From: Haplodiscus bocki
Taxonomy: Eukaryota
Reading direction: 5' to 3'
NCBI GenBank assembly: GCA_965655095.1
Contig: OZ296657.1
Span: 78,740,001-78,804,000, forward strand
Length of the DNA stretch: 64,000 bases
Program-made: the position numbers and the translations under genes
Shown here: positions 15,601 to 54,497 of the stretch, in pieces
Numbering within the stretch: the stretch's first letter is position 1
How the letters are laid out: each line of letters opens with the position of its first letter
The notes under the pieces: model-generated
Databases searched by the model: none
What the model saw: the letters and a program-made list of their open reading frames with translations, nothing else
What the model was told of the DNA's origin: nothing

Positions 15601-16192
15601 GCTAGAAAAAGTTTCTCCCGCACTTTTCTTTAAAAAGGCAAAATCGTCGATTGAAACCTTGTCTATAGGAACCAACCCTCTAGTCCGTGAATTCGAAAAT
15701 CGATGTGAAGCAATATCAATAGCACATTTCTGAATCTTTAGATTATTACACTGATTGACAAAGGACCAAAAAACATGATTTATCAACTGCATTTTTCATT
15801 TCAAATGAAAAGCTTTTGATTGAAACCGTGATGGAAATCAAACCTGTAAAAGTTGGGAAATTTGAACTTGAACATCGAAAGGAGTCATAAAAAGTAGCAC
15901 ATTTAGAACCTTAGTGTCATCAAAATTCGAAGGCAACGAGCAATTTTATTAGCTTCCTAACCAACTTTTTTTGTGCACATGAAAAATTGTCCATTCAGAC
16001 GTTAGTGGAGGATATCAAAACAGTAGCATTCTTGTTATATGGTTTTGAAAATCAACATGAAATAAAAAGAATTAATTTTTCTGGGAATTTCTGGACTATA
16101 ACGACCTTGTTACATAGAACAAAATCAATGACATCCCAATCGAATAGTTCTCCACAAGTAAAAGTTTTTCGATTCAGACCTGTGGCTGAATT

Positions 16193-16308
16193 TAAGACTT
16201 ATGAAGAATAGCCTTCGCTACAACGCAGTAGTGCTGACTGAGTCTACCCCCAGCACACAACACAATCGAATAAGCAATACATTTTCAAAACCCCCACTAC
16301 GTGCGACA
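16193..16308 (+). repeat. Element A 5' LTR (only the 3'-terminal ~115 bp is present)
   Basis: Roughly 85% identical to 31647-31760; ends ...GTGCGACA, 3 nt before the PBS. Confidence 0.85.
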
Positions 16309-16311
16309 AAC

Positions 16312-16329
16312 TGGTGCGACCAGTGAGGC
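16312..16329 (+). promoter_or_regulatory. Primer binding site of element A
   Basis: TGGTGCGACCAGTGAGGC, 3 nt after the LTR end. TGG is complementary to tRNA CCA. The GTGAGG portion resembles Ile(UAU) or elongator Met tRNA 3' ends; tRNA identity is uncertain. Confidence 0.8.
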
Positions 16330-17665: not shown

Positions 17666-17701
17666 AGCATTTTGGCACAACCCCATCTAGCCTCCACAGA
17701 C

Positions 17702-19088
17702 ATGGCACTGGACAAATTTTCTGGCACTGACCCAGACCAGGATGAAGAAGCATTCAATCCTTTAAAACAGTGCCAAAATAATTTTGCTCTCGGAACTGAA
17801 CCAGACCACGCTGATGCAGAGCATGTTATGTATCTATTCAGAAAAGAAGCCTTATTCTCCTCGCTGATACGGGGAGCAGCAACCGAATGGTATTTAGGCA
17901 CTAATCTGGATGCAAAGACTTGGAATGAGGTTCGAACTGTGTTCATAACAAAATGTTCAGATGGGAGAAACAAACTTAGACACAGAATGGAAGTTGAACA
18001 TTGTATACGAGCCGTTGGAGAAAAGATTCGAAACTTTCTGCACCGAAAGAAGAAAACAGTGGACAAAAGCTGGCCTGACCATGTGGTTGGGATCACAGCG
18101 GCCGATCAGAATACTGAAAGCATTGCACAATTTCGGCAAAGAAGGCAGAGATACTTCGATTACACGCTGGGAGGATTTAGACCAAGACATCTACAACGAA
18201 AAGCCCAAAACTATTTGATGGAACATCAAAATGCAATTTGGAACGACATCTCAACCCATTTATTTAACAAAGACGTATCTTATCAAGTCTCTACTAGCTT
18301 TCTGAATGACGAAGAACAGAACAAGGCTCAGATGGCCTCCTTGGGACAAAAACTATAAAACCAACGAACTGAGTTGAAAGAACACAGAGTCAATGCTGTA
18401 GAAGGAAGCCAGAAACACATTGACCATAACCAGAAGGGAAGACAGAATGCCACAAGATTTTGTGGATACTGTAGAACCAATGGTCACACTACCAGTTTCC
18501 GCAGAAAAAAGATACGAGACGAAGAATCTGAAAAATTACAAAACGAGGCTACAGCCGAGAAAAAAGTTACGTTCACCCATGACTACCACAAGAGACCTTC
18601 CCAGGGATTTGGGCATTGGACTAGTCGGAATGGTGATAATGGGCTATGATGCCAACCCCCAACCTGACACAAGAGGAAAATTTCGACCAAGCAATTAAAG
18701 TTATATCAACTTCAGTCGAAATCGACCCTGTGATCGATGTGACTACTCGAAGAACAACAATGATAGTTTCAAAGATTACAGAGCGATATCACCATACCAG
18801 TCAAACCAAGAGCAATCCAGGAATTGGAGAAGTCACAATAACAATTCACAATTGCCTTCAATGTCGAGAAAAGATCAATCCTTCACGATTTTCCGCAGTC
18901 AACTCCGATCAATTTCACCTAATCCCTCAGTGTTCAGCCGACTTGGAAACCAAGACCCGAACAAAAATATACCCCACGACAGGAATTTCCCAGTTTCTAA
19001 CAACGGCAACAAGCCAAACGTGGTTCGATTCACTACAACAGACAAAGAAAATAAAGAACTATCGGGACTATGCCCCTTAAATTGCTGA
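17702..19088 (+). pseudogene. gag: Element A gag (capsid-like domain + zinc knuckle), disrupted
   Basis: MALDKFSGTDPDQD...SLIRGAATEWY...TWNEVRTVFITK retrotransposon gag pattern; knuckle FCGYCRTNGH in ORF 18374-18649; ends CPLNC* at a probable gag-pol frameshift site. Confidence 0.85.
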
Positions 19089-24075: not shown

Positions 24076-24981
24076 CGGGCAACTGAAGTGTATCAAAAAG
24101 TTTGAACTGAAGTCCTCATCAAAAACAATCTTTAACCATACTGAAGACGAAGAATAGAGTCTAGAAGTCTACAAGTGCCCACCAACATAAAATCAACTAC
24201 AAACACATCAGACGACTGTGCGCAACAGACATTTTCATTCCAGGAGACCTGGAGTGTTGAAACGGGGAACTCATCACTTCAATGCATCAACTAGAAATAT
24301 CAATCCCGCAGTCACACACAAACACACCACTCAACAGAATTAATTTCAATTACAACTTTACTTCAATCAATTTGGGAGAATATAGGATAACTACTGTTTT
24401 TTGAGTACCTGACGGGAGTCCCGTCCAAATAAGAATCAACTCGTTTGATAATCTACCCACTGTAGGTGTTATCCCAATACCTGACCGCGCAGCAGAAATT
24501 GCCAACTTTTCTGTGACCCTCACAATCGCCAGTCTGATCCAGGCCTTTCCAATTTTGGACATGACGGAAAACCCAAGAATGGTAGATCTCCTGGCGTATA
24601 TGAAAACCAACCTTCGGGACCTACTCTGGGGTGTCACTGACCAACCTACTGCATAGAACTTGCAGTCTTTACAACCTGGAATTCAAACGATAGACGAGGA
24701 AGGTAGGTGAGTTGTCCACAACCCCTACGAAGTCTACAAATCAATCAATCTACTCCACCAAAAAACAATTCCTGACAGTTGGACGCTAGGCGCCAACTGG
24801 GAACTACAAACTTCTATCATCGATGGTGGAAGTAGGATCAATTTATTCTTTGGCACTTATTTGGCGATACCGGTTTTGGTCCAGTGCACTTTATAAAAAT
24901 GTCAACGTCGTTTTTTACAGTAGAGTAGCGCCTCTATAAATATAATGCTACCGCTTCGTGTTGGTGCCTACGAAGTAGCCG

Positions 24982-27224
24982 GTGAAATATATTAAGGCGG
25001 TCACTCTTCTTTCGGTAGTTGTGATGAAACCTTCCACTCTACCTTTCCCTTTTGCTAAAGCAACGGATGTTAAAAAGCAGGTCTTGTTCTTATTTATTTT
25101 AGCCAATTTCACAGAAACCAAGCTCGAAAATGCAGACTTGCAAAAAACGGCCTCCCACCTCAAGGTGACACTTTGTGATTGTGGAGAGATGCCAGCGAGC
25201 AACCTCTATGCCCTAAACCAGGTTTCCAAATTCAATATTGCCCCCGAGAACCTAGAAGTCAGCAGAACAAAAATTACGATGTACACAAAACTTTTTCGAC
25301 AAGAAATCAACGCAACAGTTTGTAGAGTCAAATATCAGAAAGAACAATAGCACTGCGGCTTTGGAGACGATTCAAGCATGGATGCCCATCATGCAGGAAT
25401 AACAATAGACCTAGCCCTCACAGCATCCCAATGCAGAACTCTGGCGAATTGAGGTTCAATCACAATAAAAGATGACACACTCGAGTTCAAGAAAAGAATC
25501 TAAACAACGGTAGTGAAACAAAAGTACCTTGATGATAATGGAGCAGATCTTAGCGACAAAGACAGAAATGAATGCGACTCATATGGATGGGTCAGTAGCA
25601 AGATATTTGAAGGCCGTGTACAAGACGTCACGCTTAAAGTACTCCTTAAGGACGGCAAAGTTATGAGCAAAGATGGATTGCAATTATCTTGCCCCCTGGA
25701 AGAACTTGAAAGCGATACTACCTCATTCGACCCTCATGCATATACGTGGGAAGCCCCGGACAAATGCGTATTAGCCGTTCATCGGAGAGAAGACGTTAAC
25801 AAGATCATAAAAGGGAAAAGCTATTACTATTTTGTCAGTGGACCTAACAACACCAGTCAGTATCTGTTCGAAGTAAAACCGGAACCACAAGGTTTTTGCA
25901 ACAAACCAGTGCACGTATACTCTACCAACTACGATTCGTTATACGTGGTTATCGACTTTGGCGGATTTGATCTGGCCTCTGGGAAACGAATTGGATTCTC
26001 AGGAGGAATACAACACCTACAATACTACCAGCCATCATTGTCGTCGGACGGCAGTTTATTCGTACACTTGAGTCACCCCATGCAGATGACCTTATCCCAG
26101 AAAAACCTCACCGCGTCAACATAGATTATGAACTTCATCAAGGCACAAAACTGGGTTATGTATTCTTCGGAAGCTCGCGGACGCTCGAAAGCCCTGAGAT
26201 ACAACTTTTAGAGAACCTATGCGAACAAGAAAGAAGACAAATAATGACTACTTTGATGCCTTCAATGGAAAACTCACGTTTAGCTGGCTACATGCTAACT
26301 GGAAACCGCTCTATGTTCCATAGTACCGTTGGCAGTCTCGCTTGGCTTCATCATTGCCCCTTGACGCGTTCTCCGCCACACGTGTTTAACCAATGTTATG
26401 ATGAAATTCCTATCTTCTGCGAAAATGCAATCTTCTTTGTCGACCCAATTACTCGACAAACCTACCCAGATGCCCAGGTTCAAAAATATTCGGACCGGAT
26501 TAAGAGTCTGTTTCAATTCCACAGGGAAGATGAAAACTCATCGTTCACTAATACATCCACTTTAGAACACAGGAAGCGACCAGCAGTATTCGGACCCAAA
26601 GAAGTGACTCCTGTATCCAGAAGAGCTTTTGGTGAAGCAGGAGATAGTGTTATCTACACACGAGCGCAGTTATCTGATTTCTGGGACAAAATCCTTATCA
26701 GCGCTGCTTCAAGGAAAGCTCTACAAAAATTCTCTCGAGAACTCATTGTCCCCAACACCGCAATTCATGGACCAGAACAATATTCTTATTATGCCCCCCG
26801 AACGGATTTCTATGTGGATAACATGGTTTCCCCCGGTTTCTTCAAAAATCAGTTTATGGACACGTTTGGCTCAGTTGCCTATGTCTTAGAATTTTGTGGG
26901 ATATATTTCTCCTGCATCTTGTTTGTCAAGCTCATCGTTGATCTCATAGTTATGATTTTGAGGCATATGGAAATCAATCGCCTTACCGGCGCTTCACTTG
27001 GATTTGGCAAGACACTCCTGAGTGCTTCATACAATTTGTTCTTGACGTCTATTCTAACGTCAGTATTCAATCCCCAAGCTCCGCTTTTGCAAGCGCTGGA
27101 ACCTGAACCAATGCCTACAAGAAGTGAAGACGAGACTATAGATCCTGCAGACGGAAATAGGAAAAAGGAAGAGCACCTTTATCCAGTTGTTCACTGCTCC
27201 ACTACAGCTCTTTCCCCAGTTTGA
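24982..27224 (+). pseudogene. env: Element A envelope glycoprotein, chuvirus-G / class III fusion-protein-like, disrupted
   Basis: Hydrophobic leader, then LCDC...NLYALNQV...VCRVK...*HCG...ASQC; later LCEQER..AGYMLTG..LAWLHHC..QCYDEIPI..FFVDPITR; C-terminal TM segment FCGIYFSCILFVKLIVDLIVMIL. The cysteine and motif pattern matches chuviral glycoproteins as I recall them. Confidence 0.75.
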
Positions 27225-28066
27225 TTACGATTATGTGAGCGTTATTCTTGATAGTTTTTAATAAATTATTTAAATCATTTTTTTATATTCTTTTATAGAT
27301 TTCAGACGATCCACCACTCCCCTTGCTGGAACACGACGAACTCGATTCGCTGCTCAACGGAATTGACTGGGACCAACTCTTATCTCCGCTTGATTGAATT
27401 TTGCCAACGGAGGCAGATATTGTAAATCTTCTTTCTTCTCCTTCCTCTTCTACCTCACCGGTTGTCTTGTCGGATCAGCCATCAAAACCGTTGTTCGACA
27501 AATTCCTCCAATCCTTAACAGACAACCCGATCCAATTCACAGATTACCCTACTGTCCCTCGGCAAGAATCTCGAGTCAATTTTATTTCCTTCATTGTTTG
27601 ATTCCAAAGCTCACACTAACAATCCTCAATCGGTGGGATAACAATCTACTCCCTCTCCTCCAAGACGACAACCCTTTGGTTCGACGGCTCTGAGAGCCTC
27701 AACTCAAGACGCCCGAGCTTCTTTTTCACGACCAAATAGGTTTCAAAACAATCAGCAAGTTTCTGCACAGAAACGGTGAGAGAGTTACCTTCAACGCCGC
27801 AAGTCTCTTCTAAGACCCAAATTCAAACCCTACTCACATTACAAACAAAAAAATGCCTTCTTTTCTTGGGAGATTGTATTCTTGGCTTATAGCAGACAGG
27901 AGTATACTATTCAGAATACTGCCTTATTATCACAGAGACTTGTGGTGCCTCTAACAACTATTCTAGTTCAGCCCGTCGAATGACACTGAACCTAGACGCA
28001 CCCATCTTTGAGCCAAAAAACCGCTAACGAATATATTCTATAAATCGCCCTGAGTTGCTGATCGCA

Positions 28067-29284
28067 ATGGATGCAACCACTTCTCAAGATGAAACTGAAC
28101 CTAATGGTCAAGCCAAATGCCCCAAAACTTCCTCGGATTCCAGGAGCCCCCCAGTTTTGGAGCAACTTCATCTACTGACCACTCAAACTGACCACCTCAG
28201 AAAAACCTCAGAACAAGCACTGGAACAAACAAAGCCCCTAATTCAAACATTCCCGCTGGCCAACATGAAGCAGTTCTAATATCTTCACTCCGTTCAACAC
28301 CAAGTAGCTCAATTTTTTGTAGATCTCAATATCGAGAAACGCAAACGCTTCAAACAACACGCAGGTATTCGCCAGCTCGAAGATGGGCTAGCCCAAATGC
28401 GTCGGGAGGTCAGTGAACTCTCACCTCCTTCATTTCTTGTTCCTTTTACAGTCAATCCACCGTATTCTACTGGTTTCCAAGACAATTGTGCCCTAAACAA
28501 GGCCCAAATACCAAAGCCTTCGATAACATTAACTCTTTAAAGAGCCTCCAGCACTACATTCAAATCATGGCTACCTGATCAACCACGAGGTCCACCACCA
28601 ACCATACCAACTTCCAGACATTCTTTCTTGGACTTAGACGCCCGAGCAAAACATCTGGAAGAAGAAATTACAAAGGCAAGGAACTGTCGCGAAACAATTA
28701 TATCCATCTACCGATCCCAATTTACCTTTCTCTATGACAGATTCCAAGCCCTTGAGTCTGGAGGCCCAGACACTAACCTGTGGAAATTAACTTCACTGAT
28801 ATTGGATTTCGACACCGCCAAATCTGCTACCCGACTGGACGATGCTGCCAAAATCCCCAATACTCATTATAATAGCCCTGTGTACCGCACACACCCTCAA
28901 GGCTTTAACTTTTTTATTCAATTTTACCCATATGGTTTGGACTCTGCCTTAGGAAATCACGCCTCAGTTATTTTCGCCTTTTGCCCCGGCGACTACGAAG
29001 CTTTATTGACATGGCCGTTCCCAAAAACAAGTCATCTTTCAGTTCTCGATCAACTCGACCCCGAAAATAAGTGGACCCTTACCTTTGCACCCTCAGGGAA
29101 AATATTCTCTCGAAGGCCTACCCGAGAACCGTGTCCTACCCTGACGAGTTTCATTTTCTTCCCACACAGCAGGATGTTCAGCATGACGGAAAACTTCCAT
29201 TTAATACATACTTTATATTTGAAGATGAAAATCACCGACCTGCCCGACCCTGCAGGAGCCACACCTTCCTCATTCCCAACATGA
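28067..29284 (+). pseudogene. Element A accessory gene: coiled coil + TRAF-C (MATH) domain, no RING; two in-frame stops
   Basis: LWKLTS...YNSPVYRTHPQGFNFFIQFYPYGLDSALGNHASVIF...GDYEALLTWPF...LSVLDQ is the TRAF MATH signature. ORFs 28055-28279 and 28628-29284 share a frame. Confidence 0.85.
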
Positions 29285-29896
29285 TCCTTTCTAAAGAACC
29301 CCACAATCATTTTTCTATTCTTTTAACCCCAGTGAGTTGTGGCGTTATAGCTAACGCTTAAGCAGATGTATTGTAATTCTCAGATATGTGCAGTGAGCTA
29401 TTAAACAGGAAATGACTAGTATTTAACAAGAGAACTGCAGACGTTATTGACTAGCCTGGGAGCCGTGGAGGGAATAATATAAACTCTGTATAAAGGAAGC
29501 TGAGAGGATTGGAATTGCACAAAGCAAAGAGGAAAGCAAAAGTTCCAAAAAGGTTGCAACGTGGTTCAAAGCGATTGGCTCAGTGTTCAAATTTAGACAT
29601 GCACCATGCTTGCACGATCACCTGACCGATCAGGTGACTAGTCATGTGATGTGACGACATAACTTCATTTTGGACCCGATCCGCAGTGCAGCTAACATCA
29701 TTCACTCCCACTTTCCCGCCTTGCGGAAGGTTGCTCATTATCAGAACTTCTCTCATTTTTAACGTCACTTTGCCAATTAGATTTTGACCAAAACATTTCT
29801 AAGTCTCGATTTTGCAAAGACTTAGAAAAATTTTCTCCTCTCCAAATGAGAGATATTCTTAGTCTTGATTTCGGAAAGACTTAGTCAAAAATCAAT

Positions 29897-30095
29897 AACA
29901 AGCACCATCGCAGCAACCAGTATCCATCTATCTACCAGCACCCCGGCAACAACCATCAGTATCCCAGCCGCAACCAGCAAACATCCATCAATCGGTATCC
30001 CAGCAACAACCAGCAGTATCCCGGCCGCAACCAGCAATCATCAAGCAAGCAGTATCCCAGCCGCAAACAGCAATCAACCAGCCGCAACTAGTATC
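29897..30095 (+). repeat. Degenerate ~21-bp CAGCAACAACCAGCAGTATCC-type tandem repeat
   Basis: Recurrent ccgcaaccagca / agtatccc units. Confidence 0.75.
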
Positions 30096-30099
30096 CATT

Positions 30100-30302
30100 G
30101 AGCAGCAGTCCAACATCAAGTAGCTTCAGTACAGCAGCGGTCCCACAACAAATAGCTTCAATACTGCATCTGTCCCACAACAGGTACCTTCAATACAGCA
30201 GCGGTCCCACAACAGGTAGCTTCTATACAGCAGCGGTCCCACAACAAGTAGATTCAATACAGCAGCGTTCCCACAACAAGTAGCTTCAATACGGCAGCGT
30301 CC
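30100..30302 (+). repeat. 32-bp minisatellite, 6 full copies plus a partial copy
   Basis: Unit CAGCAGCGGTCCCACAACAAGTAGCTTCAATA, starting at 30100, 30132, 30164, 30196, 30228 and 30260. Confidence 0.95.
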
Positions 30303-32576
30303 TAGCAGCAACCAGTTATCATCCGGCAAGAAGCGTCTGCGCGACTAAAGCCCGCCTCTGTTAGTTATCATTACGTTTCCTAGTAGAGGACATCTCGTTA
30401 GTGGTTGACCTAGGATTAACTGTCCGGCAGCAGGGTGTACGTTACCGCACAGTGTTTTTTTTACTAAAACTTTGATTAATTGGTAAAAGTAAAACACATA
30501 TAATAAACACGACCAGTTGAGAGTCCTTAAGACTAATGACCTGGTCGCAGACGAAAGATAAAATTGAATTACTGGTGTCCTGTAAGTCCAGATGCAGATG
30601 GTATCTCCCGGCAGGTGACTAAATACCAGCCTTAAGATTAAGTCCGACGAGCGAGTGTTTCATCATAGCACGAAGGTTTTTTTATACTAAGAATAGTCTA
30701 AAATGCATGTAATTAAAATGCATGTACTTTAAAATCCCTTTCCTGTAAGCCTGATGGCATCTCCAGCTTGGACTGAAGCAGCGACTAGGAGGCTAACTTG
30801 TTGGCCTTGTATTTCAAGTCCAGTGCAAGCATGGTTTAGCTAAACGTGAAACAAACTGTAAAACGAACTGGCTAAAAAAGCCGACTAGACAAGACGGAAA
30901 TTACGTCACCCGCACTAGTCAAAAAGTTAAAAGGTGTATGTTTTTGCTTCATTTACAGATGTTCCAGTTCTGACAGCAGCTATCGTGGATCAGTTGAATC
31001 ATAACATTTCAAAATTTTTTAATTTTATTTGAACTAATTTTAAAGAGTCCGTTCTTTCTATCAATGATTTTATAAAATTTTCTTTCAATTGAATTCAATA
31101 AGTTCAACTTTTGTAATTATTTTTAAAATTGCAGTTCGGACTAAATTAAACTAGTCTGAATTGGTGTTACTGAATATATACTTTCAGCTCTAATTTTAAA
31201 CAAGTTTATTTTCACCTGCTTTATAAGCTTTATAACTTCAATCAATTGGCGGCATCCCCTTCCAAGCCTGCTGCTAACACTAAACCTCCTTGTTGAATAA
31301 ATTGCGGCTCTTAGTTTTTTTGTTAAATTAATGTTGGCTGACTTTTAATCAACTTGCTAATGGCTAATGTTGTTGAAATAAAGAAAGAGAAGAATTGACT
31401 ATACTTTGTGAAGTATAAAGACCATTTGGCAATCTCCCGTGTAATATTCCATGCTTAAAGCCTCTGACAGAGCTGAGTAATTCCCCCTTGCATACGTGTG
31501 GTCACATTCCTTTCAGCAGTTCAACATTTTGAAATACCTTCACTGACAAATAAACTTTACTTTGTATTATTTTCCTCTGTAGCTCATATGTCCTTGCTTG
31601 AATTCACGCAATCCCTTTGTTCGCGCGGTTAAGCAAGGCACACTATTGAGACTTATAAAGAATAGCCGTCGCTACAATGCTGTAGTGCTGACTGAGTCAA
31701 CCCCCAGCAAGACACAACTGAATAAATAATACACTTCCAATACCCCCACTACGTGCGATACCTTCTTCAACCTATCTTGATTCACGAGTGCTATGAAAAA
31801 AATAATATTCCCAATTCAACAAAAATTGTACAAGTCAATTGATTGAGACCGTCAGGCACAAAATACTGGCTCTAGTCACGGCAAGAAAAAACAAATTTCC
31901 TGCAGCGGCAAATCCTAACTAGTCAGATATTCGGCACGTTCAGGTTAAAAAACAGCGTCGAAAGTTGCGTTGATTTTGCCCTAGGCTTAATAAACTGACC
32001 GTTGGGACCAATGACCTTTGGTTTCGGCTTCAGTTTAATGGTTACTTGTGTGCGCAATTTTCTTCCGTAACACTCTTTAGACAGCCTTCGATTTTAGAGC
32101 TGGGAAGTATACATTTTGTGACAGTTACTGCAGTTATACACACTTCGAAAACGATGCTGTCGTCTAATTTACCTTCCAGCCGACAAAAAAACTTCAAACG
32201 TTTGGATTGGTCTTTAGGCCGACCCTTTGCAGTATGATTGTATTATTTAATTTTGGGCAAGCTGTTCTAGCGAAAGTGATTGTTTTCTGCGCCTATGAAT
32301 GTTGACTTGACATCAATGCGATTCCTGTATTATACCCAGTAGAAATTGATTACTCTTTCAGTTGACCATTTACTATTGTGGTCTAGTTAACCTACGGATG
32401 TCAACTGATCTGATCTTATCTCTCTCTTTTTTTAGTGGATTTTGTAGTTGTAATTCTCCTGGTTTTTTCCCCGGGTTTCTTTTTTCACTTCGAAAAGTTT
32501 TCTACAATACTAACAGCATCAATTCAAGCAGAGCTTTCTGTGTTGGTTTGTTTGTCCCGTTTTCTCGAGAAGCGGA

Positions 32577-35453
32577 ATGTTCTGGAAGTGTATTGCATTT
32601 TTGTCCGCCTTGTTTTCCAAAGTTCGTGGCGCTCAAATCCTTCAAATGAACGTCAGAAGCCTAGTGAACTTTGATCGAAGAGCCAAATTAGCAAATGCAA
32701 TCACCTCCAATAACTATAACATTATATGTCTCTGTGAAACTTGGCTTAACGTTAACATTGCCTCCAGTGAGCTCTTACTTGACGGCTATGACATCTTCAG
32801 AGCAGACCGTAAAGCACTTCATGATCAAAACCCCCATGGAGGGTCATTGATTGCTGTCAAAAACAACTTTGCCGCCGAGGAAGTCCACAACCCGAACATG
32901 CCCGACAGCAGTATTGCGTGCAAGATCACAATCTGTGATGTAACCATAATTATATGTGTATTCTACAACCCCCCAGCTTCGAGTAAATACCGATATGAAC
33001 TAGCCGACTTCATAAATCTACTTAATTTCTTCCCCAAAACCTCCCAATTAGTTATCTGTGGAGATATAAACTTCCCAGAAACGAACTGGAGTTCCTTAAC
33101 CAGTCTCTCTGACTACGAACAACAAGTTCTCGACGAATTCGAGGATCGTTGCCTTCTACAAGCCATTGATTTCAAAACGTGTGGCCAAAACATTCTGGAC
33201 GTCGCCTTCTATTCAAATTGTCATATACACGCCAAGCGAGATGATTCCTTCGAGAATATATACGACTGTTCAGACCACCACGCCATCCTGCTACAGTTGG
33301 AATGTGCACTCTATGAAAAGAAACCGACCCTGGAAAGATGTCGAAGCTTCGGAAGCGGTGACTATGATGCTATGAACGAAGCAATGCGCTCCGCGCCTTT
33401 TGACTCTATCTGTCACACCAATATTGACAAAATGACGGAAGAACTATACAAGTACTTTGATTCCATAATCGAAAGACACGTTCCAAGACGCACCTTCCAC
33501 AGGCAGCAACTACCACCCTGGATTACTCGCAGTACCTCGCATTTGATCAAGCAACTTGGTACACAAAAACGTTTGCTCAGCCGCAAACCGACCTCGTATC
33601 GAAAAACAGCAGTAACTAATCTGGAAAATATAGTGTTCTCCGCATGTGAAACAGATAGAAAAAACTATCAAGAGGAACTGATGGGTTCGCGAAACACAGA
33701 TGGAATATTCAAGCATTTGAAGAGTCTCAAAAAATCGATTTCCCTCCCCAACGAAATGACCGATGGGAAAAGTACCGTGACAGCGCCCGTTGACAAAATC
33801 AACTTGCTGAACAACTTTTTCCAATCAGTCTTCTCCTCCAAACAAGTGTTCACACACGCCGATATCAAGGCCGAACAAAGCATTCTGACAAATTTCAATG
33901 TCTCCAAAAGTAAAATCAGGAAAATTCTTTCGTCCTTAGATGTCACAAAAACAAGAGGACCAAATGGCCTACCACCCATCTTCTTCAACAAAACCGCTCT
34001 TGAAATAACTCCAGCCCTACACAAACTCCTGCGCAATATCAAACGTCTCGGCAAGCTTCCCGCGACATGGAAAACTGCTGCCGTCTCACCCATATTCAAG
34101 AAAGGAGACCGAAGGTCAGTCGAAAACTGGCGACCTATCTCCTTACTGAATATAGATAGCAAGGTGCTTGAGAAGTGCATGTATGAACCCCTCTACAACC
34201 ACTTTGGGCAGTTTCTGACCCATAGTCAACATGGATTCACGAGAGGAAGATCCGTCATGACGAACATGTTACTCTTCCTGAACAAAATACATAAGGCCCT
34301 TGACAACAACAGTCAGGATGATGTAGTAGCCTTCTATACTGACTTCTCGAAGGCATTCGACAAAGTCCCTCACTTTGAACTACTGCAAAAAGTAGCGAAC
34401 ACCGGAGTTGGAGGATGTTTCCTTGAGGTACTTGTTGACTACCTGAAAGATCGAAAACAGTATGTGAGAGTTGACAACCAAAGGTCCATAACCTTACCTG
34501 TCAACAGTGGCGTCCCTCAAGGGTCCCTTCTCGGGCCTTTACTCTTTTGCATTTTCATCAATGACCTCCCTGACCGCCTCAAATTCAGTGAGCCCTATAT
34601 CTTCGCCGAAGATCTCAAAATACTTGCAATAAAGCCTGACTCTATTTCTCTCCAAAGAGACTTGAGAGCAATCGAAAGTTGGGTAAACGAGAACAAAATG
34701 AGCCTAGCAATGGACAAATGTGCCAAACTCACTTTTCGAGGCATAAACAAGAACTTCAAATTGATGGGATCAGTGCTTGAATCTTCAAGCGAAGTCAAGG
34801 ATCTGGGTGTAATGATAGACCAAAAACTGAGCTCAACTAGACATGTCGATGTCAGACTGGCGAAAGCCAGAAACGCCCTTTATTACGTCAGGCGAAATGT
34901 CGCTTATCAGATCAGCCGCCAGGTCAAACTTGGTCTGTATAAATCGTTAATTCTCCCGATACTGACCTACGGATTTCACTGCTACAGCCCTAACAGGACG
35001 GACCTAAACAGGCTTGAACGTTTCCAGCGGAAAGCCATCAAATGGATAATGGGCAATCAGTCTGACGATTACAAACGTCAACTCAGTACTCTCAATCTCC
35101 TCCCACTGCCCATGTTTTTGCAAGTTAATGACTTACTCCTGTTCTCCTCCCTGTGTAATGAACAACATGAGATGATACCCCCTAGAGTTCCACCAAACAG
35201 GCGAACACGCACACTCTTCGAAACAGGTGGAGCCCGAACGGAGAAAGCGAGATCGGAATTCTTCTTCAGAAATAGCCGATTAGCGAACAGACTTAACTTG
35301 TATATCATCTTTGACGAAAAGGCTGGACTCAAAAGTAGGATTCTGAGAACAATGAAAGCGATATTTGAAGAAAGGTTCTCATTCCAAAATGTCTGTACTT
35401 GGCAGGCAGCCTGTGACTGTCACCAGTGCAGAGACTTGTGGACAACAATCTAG
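32577..35453 (+). CDS. LINE (CR1/L2/jockey group) ORF2: APE endonuclease + reverse transcriptase, 958 aa open frame
   Basis: APE motifs QMNVRSL, LCETWL, GDINFP, SDHH; RT motifs WRPISLL, QHGF, YTDFSKAFDKVPH, GVPQGSLLGPLLF, FAEDLK, KDLGV. Confidence 0.95.
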   Translation: MFWKCIAFLSALFSKVRGAQILQMNVRSLVNFDRRAKLANAITSNNYNIICLCETWLNVNIASSELLLDGYDIFRADRKALHDQNPHGGSLIAVKNNFAAEEVHNPNMPDSSIACKITICDVTIIICVFYNPPASSKYRYELADFINLLNFFPKTSQLVICGDINFPETNWSSLTSLSDYEQQVLDEFEDRCLLQAIDFKTCGQNILDVAFYSNCHIHAKRDDSFENIYDCSDHHAILLQLECALYEKKPTLERCRSFGSGDYDAMNEAMRSAPFDSICHTNIDKMTEELYKYFDSIIERHVPRRTFHRQQLPPWITRSTSHLIKQLGTQKRLLSRKPTSYRKTAVTNLENIVFSACETDRKNYQEELMGSRNTDGIFKHLKSLKKSISLPNEMTDGKSTVTAPVDKINLLNNFFQSVFSSKQVFTHADIKAEQSILTNFNVSKSKIRKILSSLDVTKTRGPNGLPPIFFNKTALEITPALHKLLRNIKRLGKLPATWKTAAVSPIFKKGDRRSVENWRPISLLNIDSKVLEKCMYEPLYNHFGQFLTHSQHGFTRGRSVMTNMLLFLNKIHKALDNNSQDDVVAFYTDFSKAFDKVPHFELLQKVANTGVGGCFLEVLVDYLKDRKQYVRVDNQRSITLPVNSGVPQGSLLGPLLFCIFINDLPDRLKFSEPYIFAEDLKILAIKPDSISLQRDLRAIESWVNENKMSLAMDKCAKLTFRGINKNFKLMGSVLESSSEVKDLGVMIDQKLSSTRHVDVRLAKARNALYYVRRNVAYQISRQVKLGLYKSLILPILTYGFHCYSPNRTDLNRLERFQRKAIKWIMGNQSDDYKRQLSTLNLLPLPMFLQVNDLLLFSSLCNEQHEMIPPRVPPNRRTRTLFETGGARTEKARSEFFFRNSRLANRLNLYIIFDEKAGLKSRILRTMKAIFEERFSFQNVCTWQAACDCHQCRDLWTTI

Positions 35454-43675: not shown

Positions 43676-44316
43676 TATAACAATTGCTTGTTTTCGTTCT
43701 TTTGATTCTATTTTGAATAGCTATCGAAATGCGCGGGCGATTGTTGGGGTTTTAAAGTTGCTATCTCTTGGCGTTGAAAAGGGGGATATCTCTATTGAAA
43801 AACAAATTTGCAAAAAGAAGAAACGGCTTTAATTAGTTTTAGTTATAGTTAAACAGAATTTTTACATTCTGTGCAAGACAATTTATCAGACAAGATAGAA
43901 TGAGAAAAATTACTCGACTTACATTTCAGTGGTTGAGGGTGGGTCTGAATAGCTGAGTTTTTACTTTTTCGATATTTATTTCTGCAGCTGCAAGTTGCGA
44001 GTCAGGTGAAGAGCAGATGTAAACAGTCAAAATAAAACAATAATAGCTCATGAAAAGTAATATTTAAAATAAAGCAACAATAGATTTAAACAAAATTCAC
44101 ATTTGCACTTTCAATATGCAGGTGAAATTAATAAATATTAAAGCGCTAAGCACAAAGACATATGAACGTGTTTATATTTTTAACGGTTATAAAATAACAC
44201 AAGAAAGAAATTGCAGCAGTCTTTTTTATTGTATATGTAGCTGAGTCTTTCCCTTTTTTTGAAAAAGACATTAAAAAAGATATTAGTCATCGATTTCTTT
44301 TCTCCGCTCCGTTATA
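43676..44316 (-). repeat. Element B 3' LTR
   Basis: Direct repeat of 54498-55140; termini TATAAC...GTTATA. Confidence 0.95.
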
Positions 44317-44328
44317 CTACCCCAGCCC
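44317..44328 (-). promoter_or_regulatory. Element B polypurine tract
   Basis: Minus strand GGGCTGGGGTAG abutting the 3' LTR. Confidence 0.75.
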
Positions 44329-44343
44329 ATGTAGATTGTGTCC

Positions 44344-44884
44344 TCACAAGGTAACTGTCGCGGTGTAGGCTATGACGGAGGGGTTGCAGACCATGCAGGT
44401 TTGAAGTCGTTGAGCGCGCCGGGCGCCGTCCACACCGCAGCAGTTGTAGACTTGGCGCAGATGTCGGTTTAGGAGGATAGTTTTGGCTTCTTGAACAAGG
44501 GGGACAAGTGGGGCTGTGCTGGTGGGTGCGCTGGGATTTTTGTCCGGATGAATTAATAGAAGAATGTGACGGGCGTGCGAGTTAAGAGTGTCAGCTGAGG
44601 CAGTTGGTGAGCAGCATAAAAGGTCATATAACATGGGACTCTGGTGCAAAGTCGAGGGTCGTTGCGTATGTAGACAGTTGATGGAGTAACATTTCCTTAT
44701 ATGCCTCATGGACTTGGGGATTTACTGCAGCGGCCTTAAAAGAAGACACTTGTTCAGTTAACTCGAAAGTACGAGCAAGCAAGCTGGAGTTTTTTTCATT
44801 CAGAGCAGTTAAACGTTGATTTAAAGCAGTAATTTTAGTTTCTTTCTCTCGCAGTTCTTGCACGGTTTCCCCGAGAACCAACAC
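44344..44884 (-). pseudogene. Element B accessory gene: coiled coil + DnaJ (J) domain, one frameshift
   Basis: LYDLLCCSPTASADTL...LLLIHPDKNP...VQEAKTILLNRHLRQVYNCCG is a J-domain with intact HPD. Removing 1 nt near 44635 joins it to coiled-coil ORF 44624-44884. Confidence 0.85.
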
Positions 44885-45646
44885 CGAGAAGTGTTCTTAG
44901 CGGCCGCGTGGGCTTTTTCAAAGCCTTTTTGGAGGCACTGCACTGCAAATTACGTCACCAGAAGCTCCATGGCCTGTTCTGCGTCCATGGATGCTTCGGC
45001 AGCTACATCAAAGGTGTCGGGGAGGACAGGAGGTGGTAAAGGAGGGAAGCACAGACAATTTTCAGTGGGCTCGTTGACATTCACACTGATGGAGAGGGAA
45101 GTGGGAGGAGGAGCTGGTTAGCTGCGCGAACAAAAGGGCGGTTCTGGGGAGCGTTGATTTTCTTGAGAGTGACATTTTGGGATGTCGTGTTGATTCGAAT
45201 AACACGATACTCGAAAGGATCTAGCAGTCGTGCGAGATGTCCAGGAGCCAAGTCCGCGACGCGGCCAGAGCAGGTGACGAAAGGGGCAGCGCGGAAAGAA
45301 ACAGCTGAAGAGAGCCTGAAACAGAAAAAAATTGATTGACTTTTGTTACGATTTAAAATGACAGACTGTACAAGACAACATGCAAACAACAGCAGGGATG
45401 GGGCACGGGAATGTGTCCAAAGGCCCCGATTCAGGAAACTCAAACAGTAGGGAGGATCTTAGGCGATAAGTGGCACCGTACGGAAACGCACGTTGAAAGA
45501 CACTAGCAAAGCTAGGTGAAAACATGAACAGGGTTGAGAAAGTAGCACGGAAACGTGCTTAAAGACACCAAAAGTTGGGAAAATTAGTGTATGAGCATGA
45601 GTTATGTTGTTGGAGGAAATTGTACGGACACGTACAAAAAAAGACA

Positions 45647-47394
45647 TCAACCGAAGTTGAGTAAAAGCGTAGGCGAGCTAAAAATGAAGGATGACATGTG
45701 TAACAGTATGATGAAAGTCGCGGTGCGTGAGATGTGATACATGCCATCCACAAGATAGAAGGCTTGTGGAGCGTCGGGCAGCAGAACTGAAACGACTTGA
45801 CAGTTGCGGAGGGCTGGGATATCGTATTTGTAAATGAGTGAACCCAAACAAAGGAGTGTTTCATCTGTTGTTGTGTAAAAACCTTTCGGCAAAGTTTGAT
45901 TCGATTGTTCCCGGAACACTGTTGCAGTGTTAGCGCTCCAAGCTCAGCAAACCTCGTGTTTTCGGTGGATATTGCGAGAAAAGGATTTGTGAAAATGTAC
46001 AAGGAGGCTTGTTTTCTCGTCTTTATTCGGCTGATATAACGGTGTGGCATGGTATATATCAAATGTTGAAGACTTCGAATTCATTGGTTTGCCCAAAATA
46101 ACGGATATGCCACGAGGAATGAGCGTGACCTCTAGGACAAGTTGTATTTCGTAATATATTGCCTCAAAACCAGGGCGTATTGCCGGTGACAACTTTGTTC
46201 CACGGGCTACTTCGTCATCCGTTAACTGCTTGATAATTTCGGCAATTTGTTGGCGTAACAAAAATTGTGGCGTGATATAGCCACCAGCTAACGACGAGAT
46301 TGTTGAGAAGAGTGAAATGTTGTAGGCAAAAATGCTGCGCGGTATGCTTTCAAATGCGTGTATAGTGTTCCCATTTGGTACACGTAATGCCTGATTGGTT
46401 GCAAAAGGTGCATGTGTCGTACAATGACGTGGTCACATGCGAGGCTAGTACGGGCCAAGAATAGTGTTGCGTTTACGAGGTAGAATTCCATGTGTTTGAA
46501 TCGTACGTCCACTACTTCCTTCAACGTGCGAACACTTTCCTGTGTTCTTTTGATTTCTTTTCCCAGTAGGAAGAAATTCTTATCGTTTCTCGTTTGCACA
46601 CGTTCCAAATTTTTGACAATTGCGTCCTGTGTGCGCATGATGTTGTCCACATCTCGTGACAGAGCATCGTTGTTTTTACAGAGGTTGAATATTGACAGCG
46701 CATTGCATGCAGCATTTTTAATTGGTTCTCCTTGAACTAATCCGGCGCCGGCTGCCACTGCTGCAATCGCTCCAATAGCTCTGCGTGATCGGCCACCCGG
46801 TTGTTGGTCCCTTCGAGCACCGGGCGGAATGAAGGAAATGGCTACGTCGAATAAACTCTTTTTCTCTTCCAACGCTGCCGTCAGCTCATATTCTAAAAAG
46901 CTAACTCTTGTTTCAAGTTGTTGGAGAAGGAGGGCATATGTTTCATTGAAATACATATACTTGCAGTTTTCATTGATGTACATGACAACAATCGAGTCAG
47001 GGGCCCGTTTGAAAGCTTCAACCATGTATCTTGCTTGGGTCAGGTTAATTGCCGGAATCCGAGGGAACGGTGAGAAATTACGGGCTTTACTCTCGCTTTC
47101 GGAGGTAACCGCTTGATATTTGAAAACAAAAGCAGCGCCTTTCTTGAAGACTGGTTTAGCCAAATCATCACCCACATGAGTGGTAAATTGCATCTGGAGC
47201 TTGATTAAGGGCAAGAAGACACTCACTAGTAGAACCGGGGGATTCAGTTGCCTTATTGAAGTGACTCGTTTGGATTTTTGAGAAATCCTGAAACAACAAC
47301 GACGTGGAGGAATTGCGCAGAGATCCTTGAAAGTAAGGAAAATAAAAGGTATATAAATGCGAGCTTGTGTAAAAAAAACAATAAAGAAGTTCAT
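45647..47394 (-). pseudogene. env: Element B envelope, class I fusion protein, frameshifted and apparently C-terminally deleted
   Basis: Furin site RSRR followed by the hydrophobic fusion peptide AIGAIAAVAAGAGLV and heptad repeats; downstream Cys-rich region (LQQCSGNNRIKLC...LLCL...RNC) across ORFs 45944-46261, 45559-46062 and 45647-45919. Confidence 0.85.
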
Positions 47395-47407
47395 CGAACC
47401 TCTTGGT

Positions 47408-50400
47408 TCAACGTTGTGGCTGTGTTTTGCCCGAACGATTGGGGGAATTGAAATCAGTAAGATTTGTCGGCAAGTTTGACATAAATAAGGGTTGTGCTGG
47501 ACGCTGTTGCATCGTCGATGCTCTCAATGTTCGATGTTCCTGTGGCGTTTGTGAAGCAACGCGAAGCTTTGCGGTGGCTTGATCAATGATTTTTCGTTTG
47601 CGAGAACGTCCACCAGGTCGACTTGTCGGAGTACTTGGGGAAAACGTTTTGTTTGACAGTCTTTGAGAAACAGGTGAGCTGGAAAGAATATTAGTTCGGT
47701 TTTTGGTTGTTGAAGTCGACGTTGGTGTGATTGTGGTGCTTTGTTCTGAGTTTTGGGCGTACGGGACTGTCGAAGCAGGTGTGTGCGGGACTGTGACTGT
47801 CCCCATCGGGGGTGTTGCTATTGCAGGTGTAGGACATGGTATTGGGAGGTTGCTACCTGAGAAAGTCTTTGCTATGGAAGGCGAAAATTGTTGAGGTGTT
47901 GGTAAAGATGGCCACTCGGTGTAGTAGGTATGATCGATATCATTTCGAGGAGTTGAAGACCTAAGCGTCCGATTTCGAGTTGGTACATTAGAAGTTGAAG
48001 TCACAATTTCAGGAGTTGTTTCTCTGGTCGGGATGTTCGTAGTGGGGGGCTTCCTTCGGAATGGTTTCAAACGGTCGTAATGTAACATGGATTCTTTTCC
48101 TGTACTGACTTCTTTGATTCGATAGTTCACGTCATTCAAGCCTTTCAGTATAGTGTAAGGACCACGCCATGGGCTAAAAAAACTTGGGGCTTCGGCCAAC
48201 CGGTACCACTGGCGTATGTAAAAGCACTTCTTGTCCGTCTCGGTGGGTGGGGCCTTGTACCTTGTGAATATATATGGCGTTACGCCGTCGCTGATTCTTG
48301 TTAAGATTGTCGTGGACCAACGCAAATGCTCGCTGAAAAGCTTGTTTTCTCTGATGGACAAACTCATGAACATTAGTTGGACAATCGGATTCTGGGCTCG
48401 GAAACATGAGATCCAAAGGTATTGAAGTTTCTCGACCGTGCACCAATAATTGTGGGGTGTATCCCGTGGATTCATGCACAGACGATCGATATGCCATCAT
48501 CACGTAAGGGAGTTGTTGTGACCAGTTGTTTTGGTCTGCGTTTATGCACTTCGCGAGCATATTTTGGAGGGTGCGGTTCATACGCTCAATGACCGCATTA
48601 GACTGAGGATGGAAGGCGGTCGTACCAGACTTGTCTATCTCAAGGAGAGAAAGTAGGTTCTTGAAAAGTCGAGATTCAAACTTGCGTCCTTGGTCACTGT
48701 ATGCTATGTGGACAACCGAAGCGACTAATCTAATGTTCTATCAATGCAGTGGCAGTTGTTGATGCCCTCTGGTCCGGTAGTGGTACAGCTTCATACCATT
48801 TACTGAAGTGGTCGCCAATCAAGCGGATTACTTTGTGTCCGTTGGATTCCGGTAACGGTCCCATGAAGCCAATGCCAATGTGGCGGAAAGGATAGCTAGC
48901 TTCCCAATCTACAAGAGCATGGCGATGTGTTTTTGGTGGGTTACTTTGGTGGGTTACTTCGTGTCTGACATTGGGGAGAACGACTGACAAAAAGTTTCTC
49001 ATCTTCTTGGAAACCGGGCCAATAAAATCTTCGTCTAATTTTTTCGGTAACCTTCGCTACACCTAAGTGTCCGCCAGTTGAGGAAGAGTGATTAGATTCC
49101 AAAAGTTACTCTACCATACTCTGAGGAACTATTAGTTGAAAAGAAACACGACCGTATGTGGGGTCAAATTTACGACAAAGTGCTCCGTCTGATATACAAA
49201 GACTGCTAAATTGATTATAAAGTTGCCAAGCTAACCGTGGGCTACCCTGGAGGTCGTTGTTTCTTGGTACACGTGACTGTCGAACCCAATCTTTGACCAA
49301 CTTCAATGATTCGTCTCTATCTTGCGCAAGTCGGATACTTATGGTGAACGAGGGGTTGGCATGATCAGTCACACTGTTATTGGAGGCTTCTTTTAACTCC
49401 GTGGAGTCCAACATATACACTGTGAGACGTATTTGCGATGTTGCGAACTCCTCCTTTAACATTATGCGGACTAGGTGCCATTCTAGTTGGTCGATACCAC
49501 AACCAAGTTTGGGCATACTGACTGCTTTGACATCATTGTCTTCTGCATGACGTCGAAGGGCCACTAGAGACGTTCGCAAGGAGCAATATGTTGGTTTGTC
49601 GAAAACTCGAACTTTGGTTAGAAGATGGTAGATGTATCGTTGACTTGACTCCAGAAATTGTGGGCAAAGTGATTTTTGATGCAGAGTGTCAAGTTTCAGG
49701 TAGTTTGTCGGATACTTTCGTCGAAAAGTACGGGCGATTCCAGCACTCATCTTGTAGTCCGAGGAGACACAGTGAGCGAGAGAAACGCTGGAGCTGAAGA
49801 TATCGCCAACTTTTTCATGGTACTCGAAGGTTTGAACTTCAGTGTTCGGATTAGCCAAGGAAGACGGATTCGGTGGCTGTGGAACTGGATGAGGGGTAGT
49901 AAGGACTTCAGTTGTTAGGGTCAATTCCTGGTTTGGCATTAGGCCATTCATCTTCCACTGTTGGCTTGACTTCTGAAAGATCAACCACTTTGGGATCGTG
50001 GTGAATTATCTGCACTTTAGCTTGAGGAATGCGGGACAACCCATCGGCATGTCCAATTGATTTTCCCGGTTTGTGTCGGACCTCGTAATCGAAGGCGGCC
50101 AATTTCTCGAGCCACTTTGCTGGTAATCCGTCAGGGCCTTTGAAGTTGTGGAGCCACTGAAGTGCTCGGTGATCCGTAACGATGGTAAACTTGCGACCCA
50201 AAAGATAATGTCGAAAATGGCGTGTGAAGTGGACAATTGCTAAAAGCTCCCGCTTGGTTGCAGAATATCGGGTTTGAGCTTTCGAGAAAACCTTGGAAGC
50301 GTAGCAAATGGCACGTTCTTTGCCATTTTGAACCTGAGCGAGAACAGCGCCCATTGCAGTCAAGCTTGCGTCTGTGTACAAAATAAAAGGTTCTTTCATT

Positions 50401-53408: not shown

Positions 53409-54478
53409 TTTGCTCCAATTTTTTTTGTTAGAAAAAATTTTAGAGTCGGTTCATTCTTCTTGAGGTGAAGTTTATGGGAGCACACTCAGGAAACCTGAGG
53501 AGGATGGATTTGGCACATGTAGGGAAAGAATTCCAATATGCGAACGCCAAATGTTTGCTAAGTTGGGAAAGAAATGTGCAGACGATGATTTTACACTAGA
53601 AGTTTGAGTGCTGGGAAGAAAGGGGAGTTGAGGTTGTCCAGTTAGATGTTTCCAATGATGCATTGCTTCCAAGCGAAGATGAATACTCATTTGGTGGGGT
53701 GTGAACAAGAAATCTAGTAGTTGCGACAAAGGAATTTTCAAAAATTTTGCTCGGCAGAAGTAACACGGTATAATGTATGTTTCAGGAACGGCATTCGAAA
53801 ACACGGACACAGGGATGCAAAAAGTGAACATTTTTTGTGACTAATATTGTTGTTAAACAGGGGTTTTATCACTTTCTGAGGTTTGAATGCTTTGACAATT
53901 AACGTTTACACGGTTTACTTCGTACGAAAGACCGCAAAGTGCTAAAACGATCATCAGCAGCGCGAAAGTTTGAACGATAATCAAGAAAGTCAAAAAACAG
54001 GTCGAAAACGTCGGTCCGGAACGGGCTTCGTCGTAAAAAGGCGGCGGACCGATCGATCGAGGTTTTTGATGCGGTGAGACGTACAGCGGCAGATGCGAAT
54101 GAAGGTGAGAACACGGCATTTATAAAACTTTACCAAAACGCATCAAGAACCAGAAAAATCAGAAAAAGAAAATTCGTTCTATCTAAGTACTCACGTGCGT
54201 GTCCTATTACTTAGGGGAATGAAGGATACTCGGTCAGCTTTGCCAAGACTCGCATGAATGCGGGAAAATTGCCAAAAACACGCCGAAGCGGTAAGGACAC
54301 AGCAAAAGCTGGAAAACTAGGCACGGACTAGGTCCGGAGAAAGAGATCTTATCGGCATCACTGGAAAACCAAGAACAAGCAAAAGAAAGCTCTACAAGGG
54401 AAAATGGGTCTGGGCCGGACAAATGATTGAAGAACTAAGTGAATTTTACAGTTTTAGAGAGAAATTTTCAACAGAGAC

Positions 54479-54496: not shown

Positions 54497-54497
54497 T

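Follow-up and report, generated by a model that had tools for sequence, protein, structure and literature searches.

The locus poses a double question: how did a gene for a TRAF-type protein come to lie inside a long terminal repeat (LTR) retroelement of an acoel, and what might it do there? The window, that is, the whole stretch of DNA analysed (64,000 nt of Haplodiscus bocki, contig OZ296657.1 of assembly GCA_965655095.1, positions 78,740,001 to 78,804,000 of the forward strand), contains at 28067-29284 a frame of 405 codons plus a stop, interrupted by two TAA codons (28277-79 and 28538-40), which an earlier note had read as a captured, RING-less TRAF. The frame and both stops are as described, but the start had been missed: the gene begins at the ATG at 27980, 29 codons upstream, and a third TAA at 28025-27 brings the internal stops to three. 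We identify it as one copy, now decayed, of a TRAF gene that a clade of giant, env-bearing gypsy elements carries as an accessory gene. The features of the window copy, all on the plus strand, are the following.

16192-16308, plus strand: remnant of the 5' LTR, its last ~117 nt, ending ...GCGACA and matching the end of the 3' LTR at 86%
16312-16329, plus strand: 18-mer resembling a primer-binding site, starting with TGG, common to three element families
17666-19088, plus strand: gag, broken, collinear with whole elements; gag of other copies matches PF03732
19090-24053, plus strand: pol (protease, Macro, RT, RNase H, integrase), broken, assigned by Pfam on window frames and on other copies
24053/24058, plus strand: deletion of ~1.9 kb that removes the end of pol, the antisense ORF and two small ORFs of other copies
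24979-27227, plus strand: env, broken (PF24664)
27281-27298, plus strand: pyrimidine tract plus AG, by its sequence pattern the predicted splice acceptor of ORF-X
27299-27983, plus strand: ORF-X, broken in the window, 207-227 codons in other copies, with no ATG start of its own
27980-27983, plus strand: ATGA, the ORF-X stop overlapping the TRAF start, an overlap found in 38 of 44 ORF-X tails
27980-29284, plus strand: captured TRAF gene, 434 codons to the stop, internal TAA at 28025, 28277 and 28538
27980-28015, plus strand: PAM2-like motif, degenerate in the window copy (MTLNLDAPIFEP), assigned through PF07145 on an open copy and kept in families A, B and C
28130-28420 (approximate), plus strand: first coiled coil, with the FPL..QYLH stretch common to the host donor clade (alignment)
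28628-28756 (approximate), plus strand: second coiled coil (TRAF-N), helix 8-51 of the structural model and interface of the predicted trimer
28775-29239, plus strand: MATH/TRAF-C domain, by Pfam and structure match, with no interruption at the host intron site
29338-31760, plus strand: 3' LTR of 2.4 kb with internal tandem repeats, preceded by no purine tract of the usual length

The TRAF-carrying element and its neighbors

The carrier has the hallmarks of Ty3/gypsy (Metaviridae-like) elements, namely, the pol order, two LTRs, target-site duplications, a primer-binding site, and an env-like fusion protein encoded after pol. Searching the 1.5-Gb, 12-chromosome assembly yielded 996 candidates at the DNA level and 3,701 at the protein level, figures that should not be taken as copy numbers; by hand count, ~97 of the 150 best-scoring MATH matches sit in stop-free frames of at least 429 codons, a share biased toward open copies, given that these are the best scorers. 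In a protein collection, 294 relatives were found at E <= 0.001, mostly of 404-436 residues and many with the 29-codon-earlier start; the 120 listed all come from ENA and are 56-70% identical. Whole copies of the element are 20.9-22.0 kb long, with LTRs of 2.4-3.3 kb that reach 99.7% identity within a pair, and with 4-bp target-site duplications around 5 of 13 stretches in one set and 2 of 4 in another. The coding part begins with gag and pol, continues with an antisense ORF and three small ORFs, and ends with env, ORF-X, and TRAF, after which comes the 3' LTR; within pol, protease, Macro, RT, RNase H and integrase follow each other, so that Macro lies between protease and RT. The env product is a Monjiviricetes-type fusion glycoprotein (PF24664, E 1.3e-12 in the window and 1.1e-33 in another copy). 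Families B and C, of each of which two elements were read whole, are laid out as family A is, and the order env, ORF-X, TRAF, 3' LTR is kept in all three; relative to family A, identity is 77-84% in pol and 38-46% in TRAF, and the TRAF frames have ~500 (B) and ~462 (C) codons. The window copy is old, at ~80% identity to its nearest relatives, with most of the 5' LTR gone and ~1.9 kb deleted at 24053; an apparent LTR length of only ~120 nt is an artefact of this truncated 5' LTR.

The TRAF gene is co-oriented with gag, pol, and env, as had been noted, and it does lie downstream of env (PF24664) and upstream of an LTR, but it does not adjoin env, from which it is separated by ORF-X (~227 codons). 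The arrangement recurs across the genome: among 29 other loci, the start of an LTR was found downstream of the TRAF gene in all 29, ORF-X upstream in 27, and env upstream in 26. The 3' LTR begins ~55 nt past the TRAF stop in whole copies and 54 nt past it in the window copy. In place of the usual polypurine tract before this LTR (29325-29337 in the window, and likewise in families B and C), there is a splice-donor-like word, GGTGAGT/AGTGAGT, ~47 nt past the TRAF stop.

Several variants of the element occur in the genome. The LTR ends are TG...CA in family A and TA...CA in families B and C (loci L160-L171). Matches spaced ~18.4-18.8 kb apart (C7:15319117-15374882, C3:37412627-37431786, and others) are tandem elements sharing LTRs. 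Non-autonomous derivatives occupy loci L107, L175, and L176; in these, the 5' portion of env is fused to the C-terminal portion of MATH. The one at L107 has an open frame of 266 codons, and, among the matches, frames of 169 and of 277-280 codons are found repeatedly. Tandem units of 7.7-7.9 kb, considered as spliced retro-copies, turned out to be deletion derivatives instead. The leader upstream of gag holds two short repeated frames.

Elsewhere in the window, a second gypsy element occupies 43678-55140 on the minus strand, with 645-nt LTRs that are 94% identical, a Macro domain in pol, env-like frames at 45559-47523, and, at 44344-44721, a frame with a coiled coil and a DnaJ (J-domain), which is placed just before the 3' LTR, in the slot matching that of TRAF. 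The DnaJ frame has 938 candidates in the genome and, among the 150 scored, many are in open frames of 334-390 codons; it is likely a second captured host domain. A LINE (32514-35453), with a 979-codon endonuclease and RT frame, lies 750 nt past the 3' LTR of the TRAF-carrying element, and an inverted repeat of 53 nt, 92% complementary around an 18-nt spacer, is at 63288-63411.

Selection, origin, and predicted expression of the gene

The ratio dN/dS was estimated by column-wise Nei-Gojobori counts in 10 younger copies, picked for open TRAF frames, and in 11 older ones, picked by DNA likeness and including the window copy. In the younger copies, the TRAF ORF has a dN/dS of 0.18 [0.14-0.21], a value biased downward because of the choice of copies with open TRAF frames; by part, the ratio is 0.02 for the first 13 codons, 0.14 for the first coil, 0.26 for the linker, 0.20 for the second coil, and 0.12 for MATH. 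For comparison, env, RT, and gag of the younger copies are at 0.07, 0.06, and 0.12, respectively, and ORF-X is at 0.19-0.27. In the interval between pol and env (for example, L033 8420-10355), most of which is deleted in the window copy, the antisense ORF (~187 codons) is at 0.11, and the small ORFs of 74, 73, and 136 codons are at 0.18, 0.27, and 0.42. ORF-X and the antisense ORF are accordingly coding too, and the frames between pol and env are further accessory frames subject to purifying selection. In the older copies, private changes in TRAF give 0.71 and shared ones 0.29, with 0.76 and 0.22 in env; in the younger copies, shared TRAF changes give 0.17. Private changes are nearly neutral and shared ones constrained, just as in env, and hence the copies decay after insertion, with the constraint acting during replication. 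The TRAF gene has been kept open by purifying selection.

These values bear on the possibility that the gene is a passive passenger or an independent processed pseudogene. The window copy is certainly dead, with its three stops, and the near-neutral private changes in old copies (0.71) could be taken to support this explanation; however, the shared changes are under purifying selection, the position is fixed in three families, and the LTR follows at every one of the 29 loci. Nor does the gene have the marks of an insertion in its own right that the earlier note had proposed to look for: the TRAF stop in the window is followed by no poly(A), and the gene has no target-site duplication of its own. 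We rejected this explanation on the conserved family-wide position, the selection, and the absent poly(A), and regard its chances as negligible. The fixed place in the element and the purifying selection, together with the donor clade found in the tree described below, bear out the reading of the gene as a captured host TRAF that serves as an accessory gene.

The donor clade can be traced by sequence comparison within the same genome. On contig 5, two intact genes of the host (host genes A and B) have in common with the element both MATH and the first coil, including the FPL..QYLH stretch. In local alignments of the first coil, families A and C reach z of 13-19 against host proteins and at most 2.1 against four canonical TRAFs; in family B this coil is decayed (z below 1.4). 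The dN/dS of the first coil is 0.10-0.14. In both host genes, the last MATH strand is preceded by a GT-AG intron, and the element copies read through that site; the gene is thus intronless, as had been claimed, with an uninterrupted MATH where the host genes carry an intron. Farther upstream, host gene B contains an exon that encodes half a TRAF-type finger, and no RING and no further fingers were found in ~28 kb upstream of the two genes, in a search that is weak for small exons. Another member of the donor clade, Convolutriloba macropyga XP_075250303 (482 aa), has one finger-like Cys/His stretch and no RING match. In a 32-row tree, nine element-type rows form one clade (100/99), which joins the acoel host clade (100/99). 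Grouping the element rows with the genome's canonical RING-TRAF is rejected (p-AU 0.0026), as is grouping them with four canonical TRAFs (0.012), whereas a host clade that stands as a group of its own, apart from the elements, cannot be rejected (p 0.28); the elements fit either as sister to the host clade or nested in it. This tree left out seven unplaced fragments, two element-like fragments, three of the five inverted-repeat copies, three near-duplicate element rows, and two near-duplicate host rows; added to it were five MATH rows from canonical TRAFs and a single exon from the RING-TRAF of this genome.

By these comparisons, an intron-bearing, already RING-less acoel TRAF is the donor clade. 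Compared with it, the element gene has lost the intron and the last finger, gained a PAM2-like N-terminus, and altered the groove; because the element copies are without the donor intron, capture likely went via donor mRNA. A contrasting fate befell decayed host-clade copies found in inverted repeats of 1.3-3.5 kb, some in inverted pairs (L124-L134, L172-L173, L183-L189), which have kept the last intron and are full of stops; they likely represent a second, DNA-level capture, by a long-TIR transposon. The genome's multi-exon TRAF with RING and zinc fingers lies at C8:58.41-58.47 Mb (L071, L116-L121), and a deleted TRAF-carrying element is inserted near its 3' end. In its single-exon GINS1, this genome agrees at 71-72% identity with Symsagittifera roscoffensis and Convolutriloba macropyga, which identifies the host as an acoel.

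The sequence around the TRAF start suggests how the protein might be produced. The earlier note had pointed to a TATAAAT at about 28039; the word is real (28039-45), yet it is not a promoter, because it lies within the coding sequence and TATAAA is found there in none of the 22 open family-A ORFs. The signals upstream are conserved: the acceptor pattern is present in 14 of 21 family-A stretches and in all four family B and C elements, and the overlaps between the ORF-X stop and the TRAF ATG comprise 31 ATGA, six TAATG, and one TGATG, the remaining tails having no readable start (five) or stop (one). Between the acceptor and the TRAF start, ATG is depleted in family A (9 seen against 67 expected, in nine related copies) and in family C (4 against 13), weakly so in family B (8 against 10.5), with other ORFs at 0.9-1.35 of expectation, a scarcity that fits leaky scanning. 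An ORF-X that is led by a predicted acceptor, has no ATG start, and has a stop overlapping the TRAF start makes it likely that the element RNA is spliced and that TRAF is its second cistron; these conserved signals suggest splicing combined with either leaky scanning or stop-restart translation. In termination-reinitiation of the TURBS type, a UGGGA is exposed by the paired motifs 2/2*. UGGGA words at -113 (45/50) and -98 (47/50) occur in all three families, but they are forced by Trp-Glu/Trp-Asp codons. No RNA structure common to the three families was found, and third bases are the same at one of seven shared four-fold sites.

ORF-X itself ends in a conserved C-terminal domain of ~55 residues that has no Pfam match and yields a weak Tudor-like lead (Atlas 0.79, under the mark). 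In family A, ORF-X contains a P-x-Q-E-S stretch (window ~27560-27575) that was not seen there in B or C and that fits the consensus for TRAF binding.

Fold, groove, N-terminus, and a proposed mechanism

The complete TRAF-C/MATH domain and the coiled coils that had been predicted from the sequence are both borne out. Pfam recovers PF21355 at E 6.5e-13, with TRAF5, 4, 3, 1, and 2 as the best solved relatives, and the AF2 model of a naturally open copy (pLDDT 84) is a 44-residue helix followed by a MATH sandwich, for which the top Foldseek matches are TRAF1-6, with E 1e-13 to TRAF5. The protein thus has the coiled coil and the TRAF-type MATH that define the TRAF family. The N-terminal RING and zinc fingers of the TRAF2-6 type are absent from the element ORF, which, in agreement with the earlier note, contains neither RING nor zinc finger by Pfam.

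The groove is a different matter. At the positions that form it in TRAF2 (beta-3 Arg/Tyr, F-x-R-P, beta-7 Gly), the alignment shows the beta-7 glycine kept in all 12 non-element rows and replaced by T, A, L, or R in all six element rows; the beta-3 Arg is replaced in four of the six, with substitutes that differ by family. The loss of the groove glycine therefore argues against a plain receptor-tail decoy. The groove may bind something new rather than nothing, because purifying selection continues to act on it: across 19 family-A ORFs that are open, dN/dS is 0.23 for the groove, 0.13 for the coil interface, 0.31 [0.14-0.50] for the MATH part of the trimer interface, and 0.10 for the rest of MATH, the MATH interface being less constrained than the rest of the domain.

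The coil suggests where the protein might act. A trimer of two host chains and one element chain, with the host represented by an ortholog (74% identical) taken from a different data set, was predicted with a score of 0.62, against 0.01 for the best of three controls; runs agree in at least 93% of contacts, with partner pLDDT of at least 81, and, of the complexes used to set the mark for this score, 51 of the 78 solved ones attained it, as did 2 of the 108 mismatched pairs. The score shows likeness rather than binding, because similar trimers have been solved, so that the pass may reflect memory, and because cousins pass too. The element TRAF is accordingly predicted to join host-clade TRAFs in a heterotrimer, and a role in interfering with host TRAFs is plausible from the models.

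The N-terminus is the part most peculiar to the element. Natural copies start with MTLNPHAPIFKP in family A, MSLNPLAPAFVP in family B, and MTLNPFAPTFRP in family C. PAM2 has the consensus L-N-P-x-A-x-x-F-x-P, and the element motif is without the acid that usually precedes the Phe. When the first 40 residues of an open copy are searched, PF07145 is the sole Pfam match (positions 5-16, E 0.021, 15 bits against a cut-off of 20); it gives no match on the window copy, and a PDB search with the first 30 residues gave none either. The start is encoded by different synonymous codons in the three families, so that a motif in a disordered end is conserved at the protein level across families with TRAFs that are 38-46% identical; none of 12 host-clade proteins has the pattern, nor does it occur at any of 379,924 background codon positions. 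A dN of 0 for PAM2 in the set of 19 open ORFs was discarded as circular, the rows having been chosen by that very motif. We conclude that the N-terminus is PAM2-like, at a score below the Pfam cut-off, and may bind an MLLE domain. The MLLE domain of poly(A)-binding protein (PABP) binds PAM2, and PAM2 proteins govern translation, termination, and decay through PABP (PMC9753129). In the genome, a search for MLLE turned up only a partial UBR5-like MLLE exon, and the best match to a PABP model is SF3B4-like by sequence rather than PABP. PAM2 also binds the MLLE of UBR5/EDD.

From these observations, we assemble a mechanism to which, as a whole, we assign a probability of about 0.5. The mRNA of a host TRAF would have been captured by the element and the gene kept open by selection; the protein would be made from a spliced, two-cistron RNA, with TRAF as the second cistron, and would enter host TRAF trimers via the coiled coil. 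The altered groove would weaken the hold of such mixed trimers on receptor tails, and the PAM2-like end would tie them to an MLLE-domain protein, either poly(A)-binding protein or the UBR5 ligase. The element might benefit through the damping of death, stress, or immune signaling in the cells where it replicates.

Three other functions deserve consideration. The protein could work on the RNA side, its trimer presenting three PAM2 motifs to poly(A)-binding protein and thereby raising the translation, stability, or packaging of the element RNA, with TRAF as a scaffold and host signaling of no concern. This would make sense of the PAM2-like start as the most constrained part of the protein (0.02) and the sole piece added by the element, of the lost groove glycine, and of the known action of PAM2 proteins on translation, termination, and decay through PABP (PMC9753129). 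Yet, families A and C have retained the first coil that they share with the host clade (dN/dS 0.10-0.14, z 13-19), and constraint extends over all of MATH, which seems to exceed the needs of a bare scaffold, and the identification of PAM2 is itself below threshold; we consider this adaptor rather unlikely.

The decoy favored in the earlier note would, in the form considered here, occupy the receptor tails of TNFR/TLR pathways through its MATH groove and, without a RING, transmit nothing. RING-less TRAF fragments act as dominant negatives in mammals, the TRAF fold of the element protein is complete, its groove is under purifying selection (0.23), and a pathway-domain search of the genome, which was poorly sensitive to genes split by introns and missed PABP as well, found one TNFR repeat and two TIR hits. 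The argument from a removed RING finds no support, however: the donor clade was RING-less beforehand, so that the RING was not cut off by the element. Furthermore, the groove has the replacements described above, in six of six rows at Gly and four of six at the beta-3 Arg, with residues differing by family, and the decoy leaves the PAM2-like start unexplained. A search of the genome for a Rel (NF-kB) domain found none, a result of low sensitivity that is no evidence of absence, given that the positive control likewise went unmatched. All told, the decoy seems unlikely.

Finally, the protein could activate signaling or death, as the iridovirus TRAF ORF111L does: that protein, from ISKNV, binds TRADD and induces caspase-8 apoptosis (PMC3352826). 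However, ORF111L has a RING and the element protein has none, and killing a germ-line or stem cell would presumably not favor an inherited element. TRAF1-type subunits can enhance signaling in mixed trimers, which speaks for activation; even so, we hold it to be highly improbable.

A broader reading, which builds on the mechanism that we propose and which we offer only tentatively, is that these elements bear a gene load like that of complex retroviruses, with at least six accessory frames under selection, among which a PAM2-TRAF adaptor, made by stop-restart on a spliced RNA, would couple control of host signaling to that of mRNA fate. Such an adaptor would co-assemble with host TRAF trimers and hand them to poly(A)-binding protein or UBR5, and might have helped the clade to reach thousands of copies.

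Known systems and what the capture means

The closest precedent is Burro/GYPSM1 of planarians, giant gypsy-like LTR elements in thousands of copies that encode MATH_TRAF_C and a mononegavirus-related env, for which the authors propose meddling with apoptosis and ubiquitination (PMC6431247). There, MATH is part of a polyprotein of ~4,900 residues or, in Dugesia tigrina, of an upstream accessory ORF, next to BIR, BCL2-like, and ankyrin domains, and env lies between gag and pol (PMC6431247). The acoel element, by contrast, has separate gag, pol, and env, lacks BIR, BCL2, and ankyrin domains, and has a stand-alone TRAF after env; this TRAF belongs with the host clade of acoels, contains two coils, begins with a PAM2-like motif, and overlaps the ORF before it. 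The acoel donor suggests that the capture was likely independent of that in Burro. Among openly accessible articles, the literature search found no acoel case, no stand-alone post-env TRAF, no PAM2-TRAF fusion, and no PAM2 carried by a retroelement, nor, at the level of search listings, any viral or retroelement PAM2-TRAF; in the search listing, two Symsagittifera genome papers contain no occurrence of 'traf'.

Other systems resemble the acoel gene in part. Mammalian TRAF1 is RING-less, consists of a coiled coil and MATH, and forms mixed trimers with another TRAF. Its structures 5e1t and 5h10 are among the top Foldseek matches of the element TRAF. The acoel donor clade shares the one-finger, no-RING layout of TRAF1; the element protein, in contrast, lacks both the finger and the groove glycine and has a second coil as well as a PAM2-like start, and no test applied here makes it an ortholog of TRAF1. 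ISKNV ORF111L is likewise a virus-borne TRAF of host derivation, but it comes from a DNA virus, keeps the RING, is pro-apoptotic via TRADD, and has no PAM2 (PMC3352826). In caliciviruses, influenza B, and SART1, a non-LTR element, termination-reinitiation uses overlapping stop-start signals of the UAAUG, AUGA, and UGAUG kinds, located where a long ORF meets the one downstream of it (PMC10275272, PMC5972666). The acoel case differs in that the carrier is an LTR element and the junction lies behind a predicted splice acceptor; its UGGGA words are further upstream than the ~45-nt region of influenza B as described there, and no shared structure was found. PAM2 proteins such as Paip1/2, eRF3, Ataxin-2, and LARP4 have a short motif in a disordered end (PMC9753129); that of the element is below the Pfam cut-off, is at the very N-terminus, and is fused to TRAF.

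A MATH/TRAF domain in a giant gypsy element is already in print, and, for Burro, the idea of meddling with signaling rested on domain lists only (PMC6431247); what is new here is the capture, likely independent, from an acoel donor with a new architecture. Complex retroviruses and large DNA viruses offer familiar examples of accessory genes that act on host signaling, but such genes are barely documented in the LTR elements of invertebrates. In this case, a single genome presents the donor gene, the route of capture as suggested by the missing intron, purifying selection, an added motif, and the likely mode of translation, along with an internal control, the same host clade having also been picked up in long inverted repeats, where the intron was kept and the copies decayed. 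The gene would also be a natural case of a PAM2-TRAF fusion, with the motif being PAM2-like and below the cut-off. For the study of acoel gene families, it matters that 'TRAF genes', which such assemblies contain by the hundreds to thousands, are cargo of elements, and gene counts should be read accordingly. For the biology of these animals, the findings make testable the idea that LTR elements may swell acoel genomes by suppressing cell death or immune signaling.
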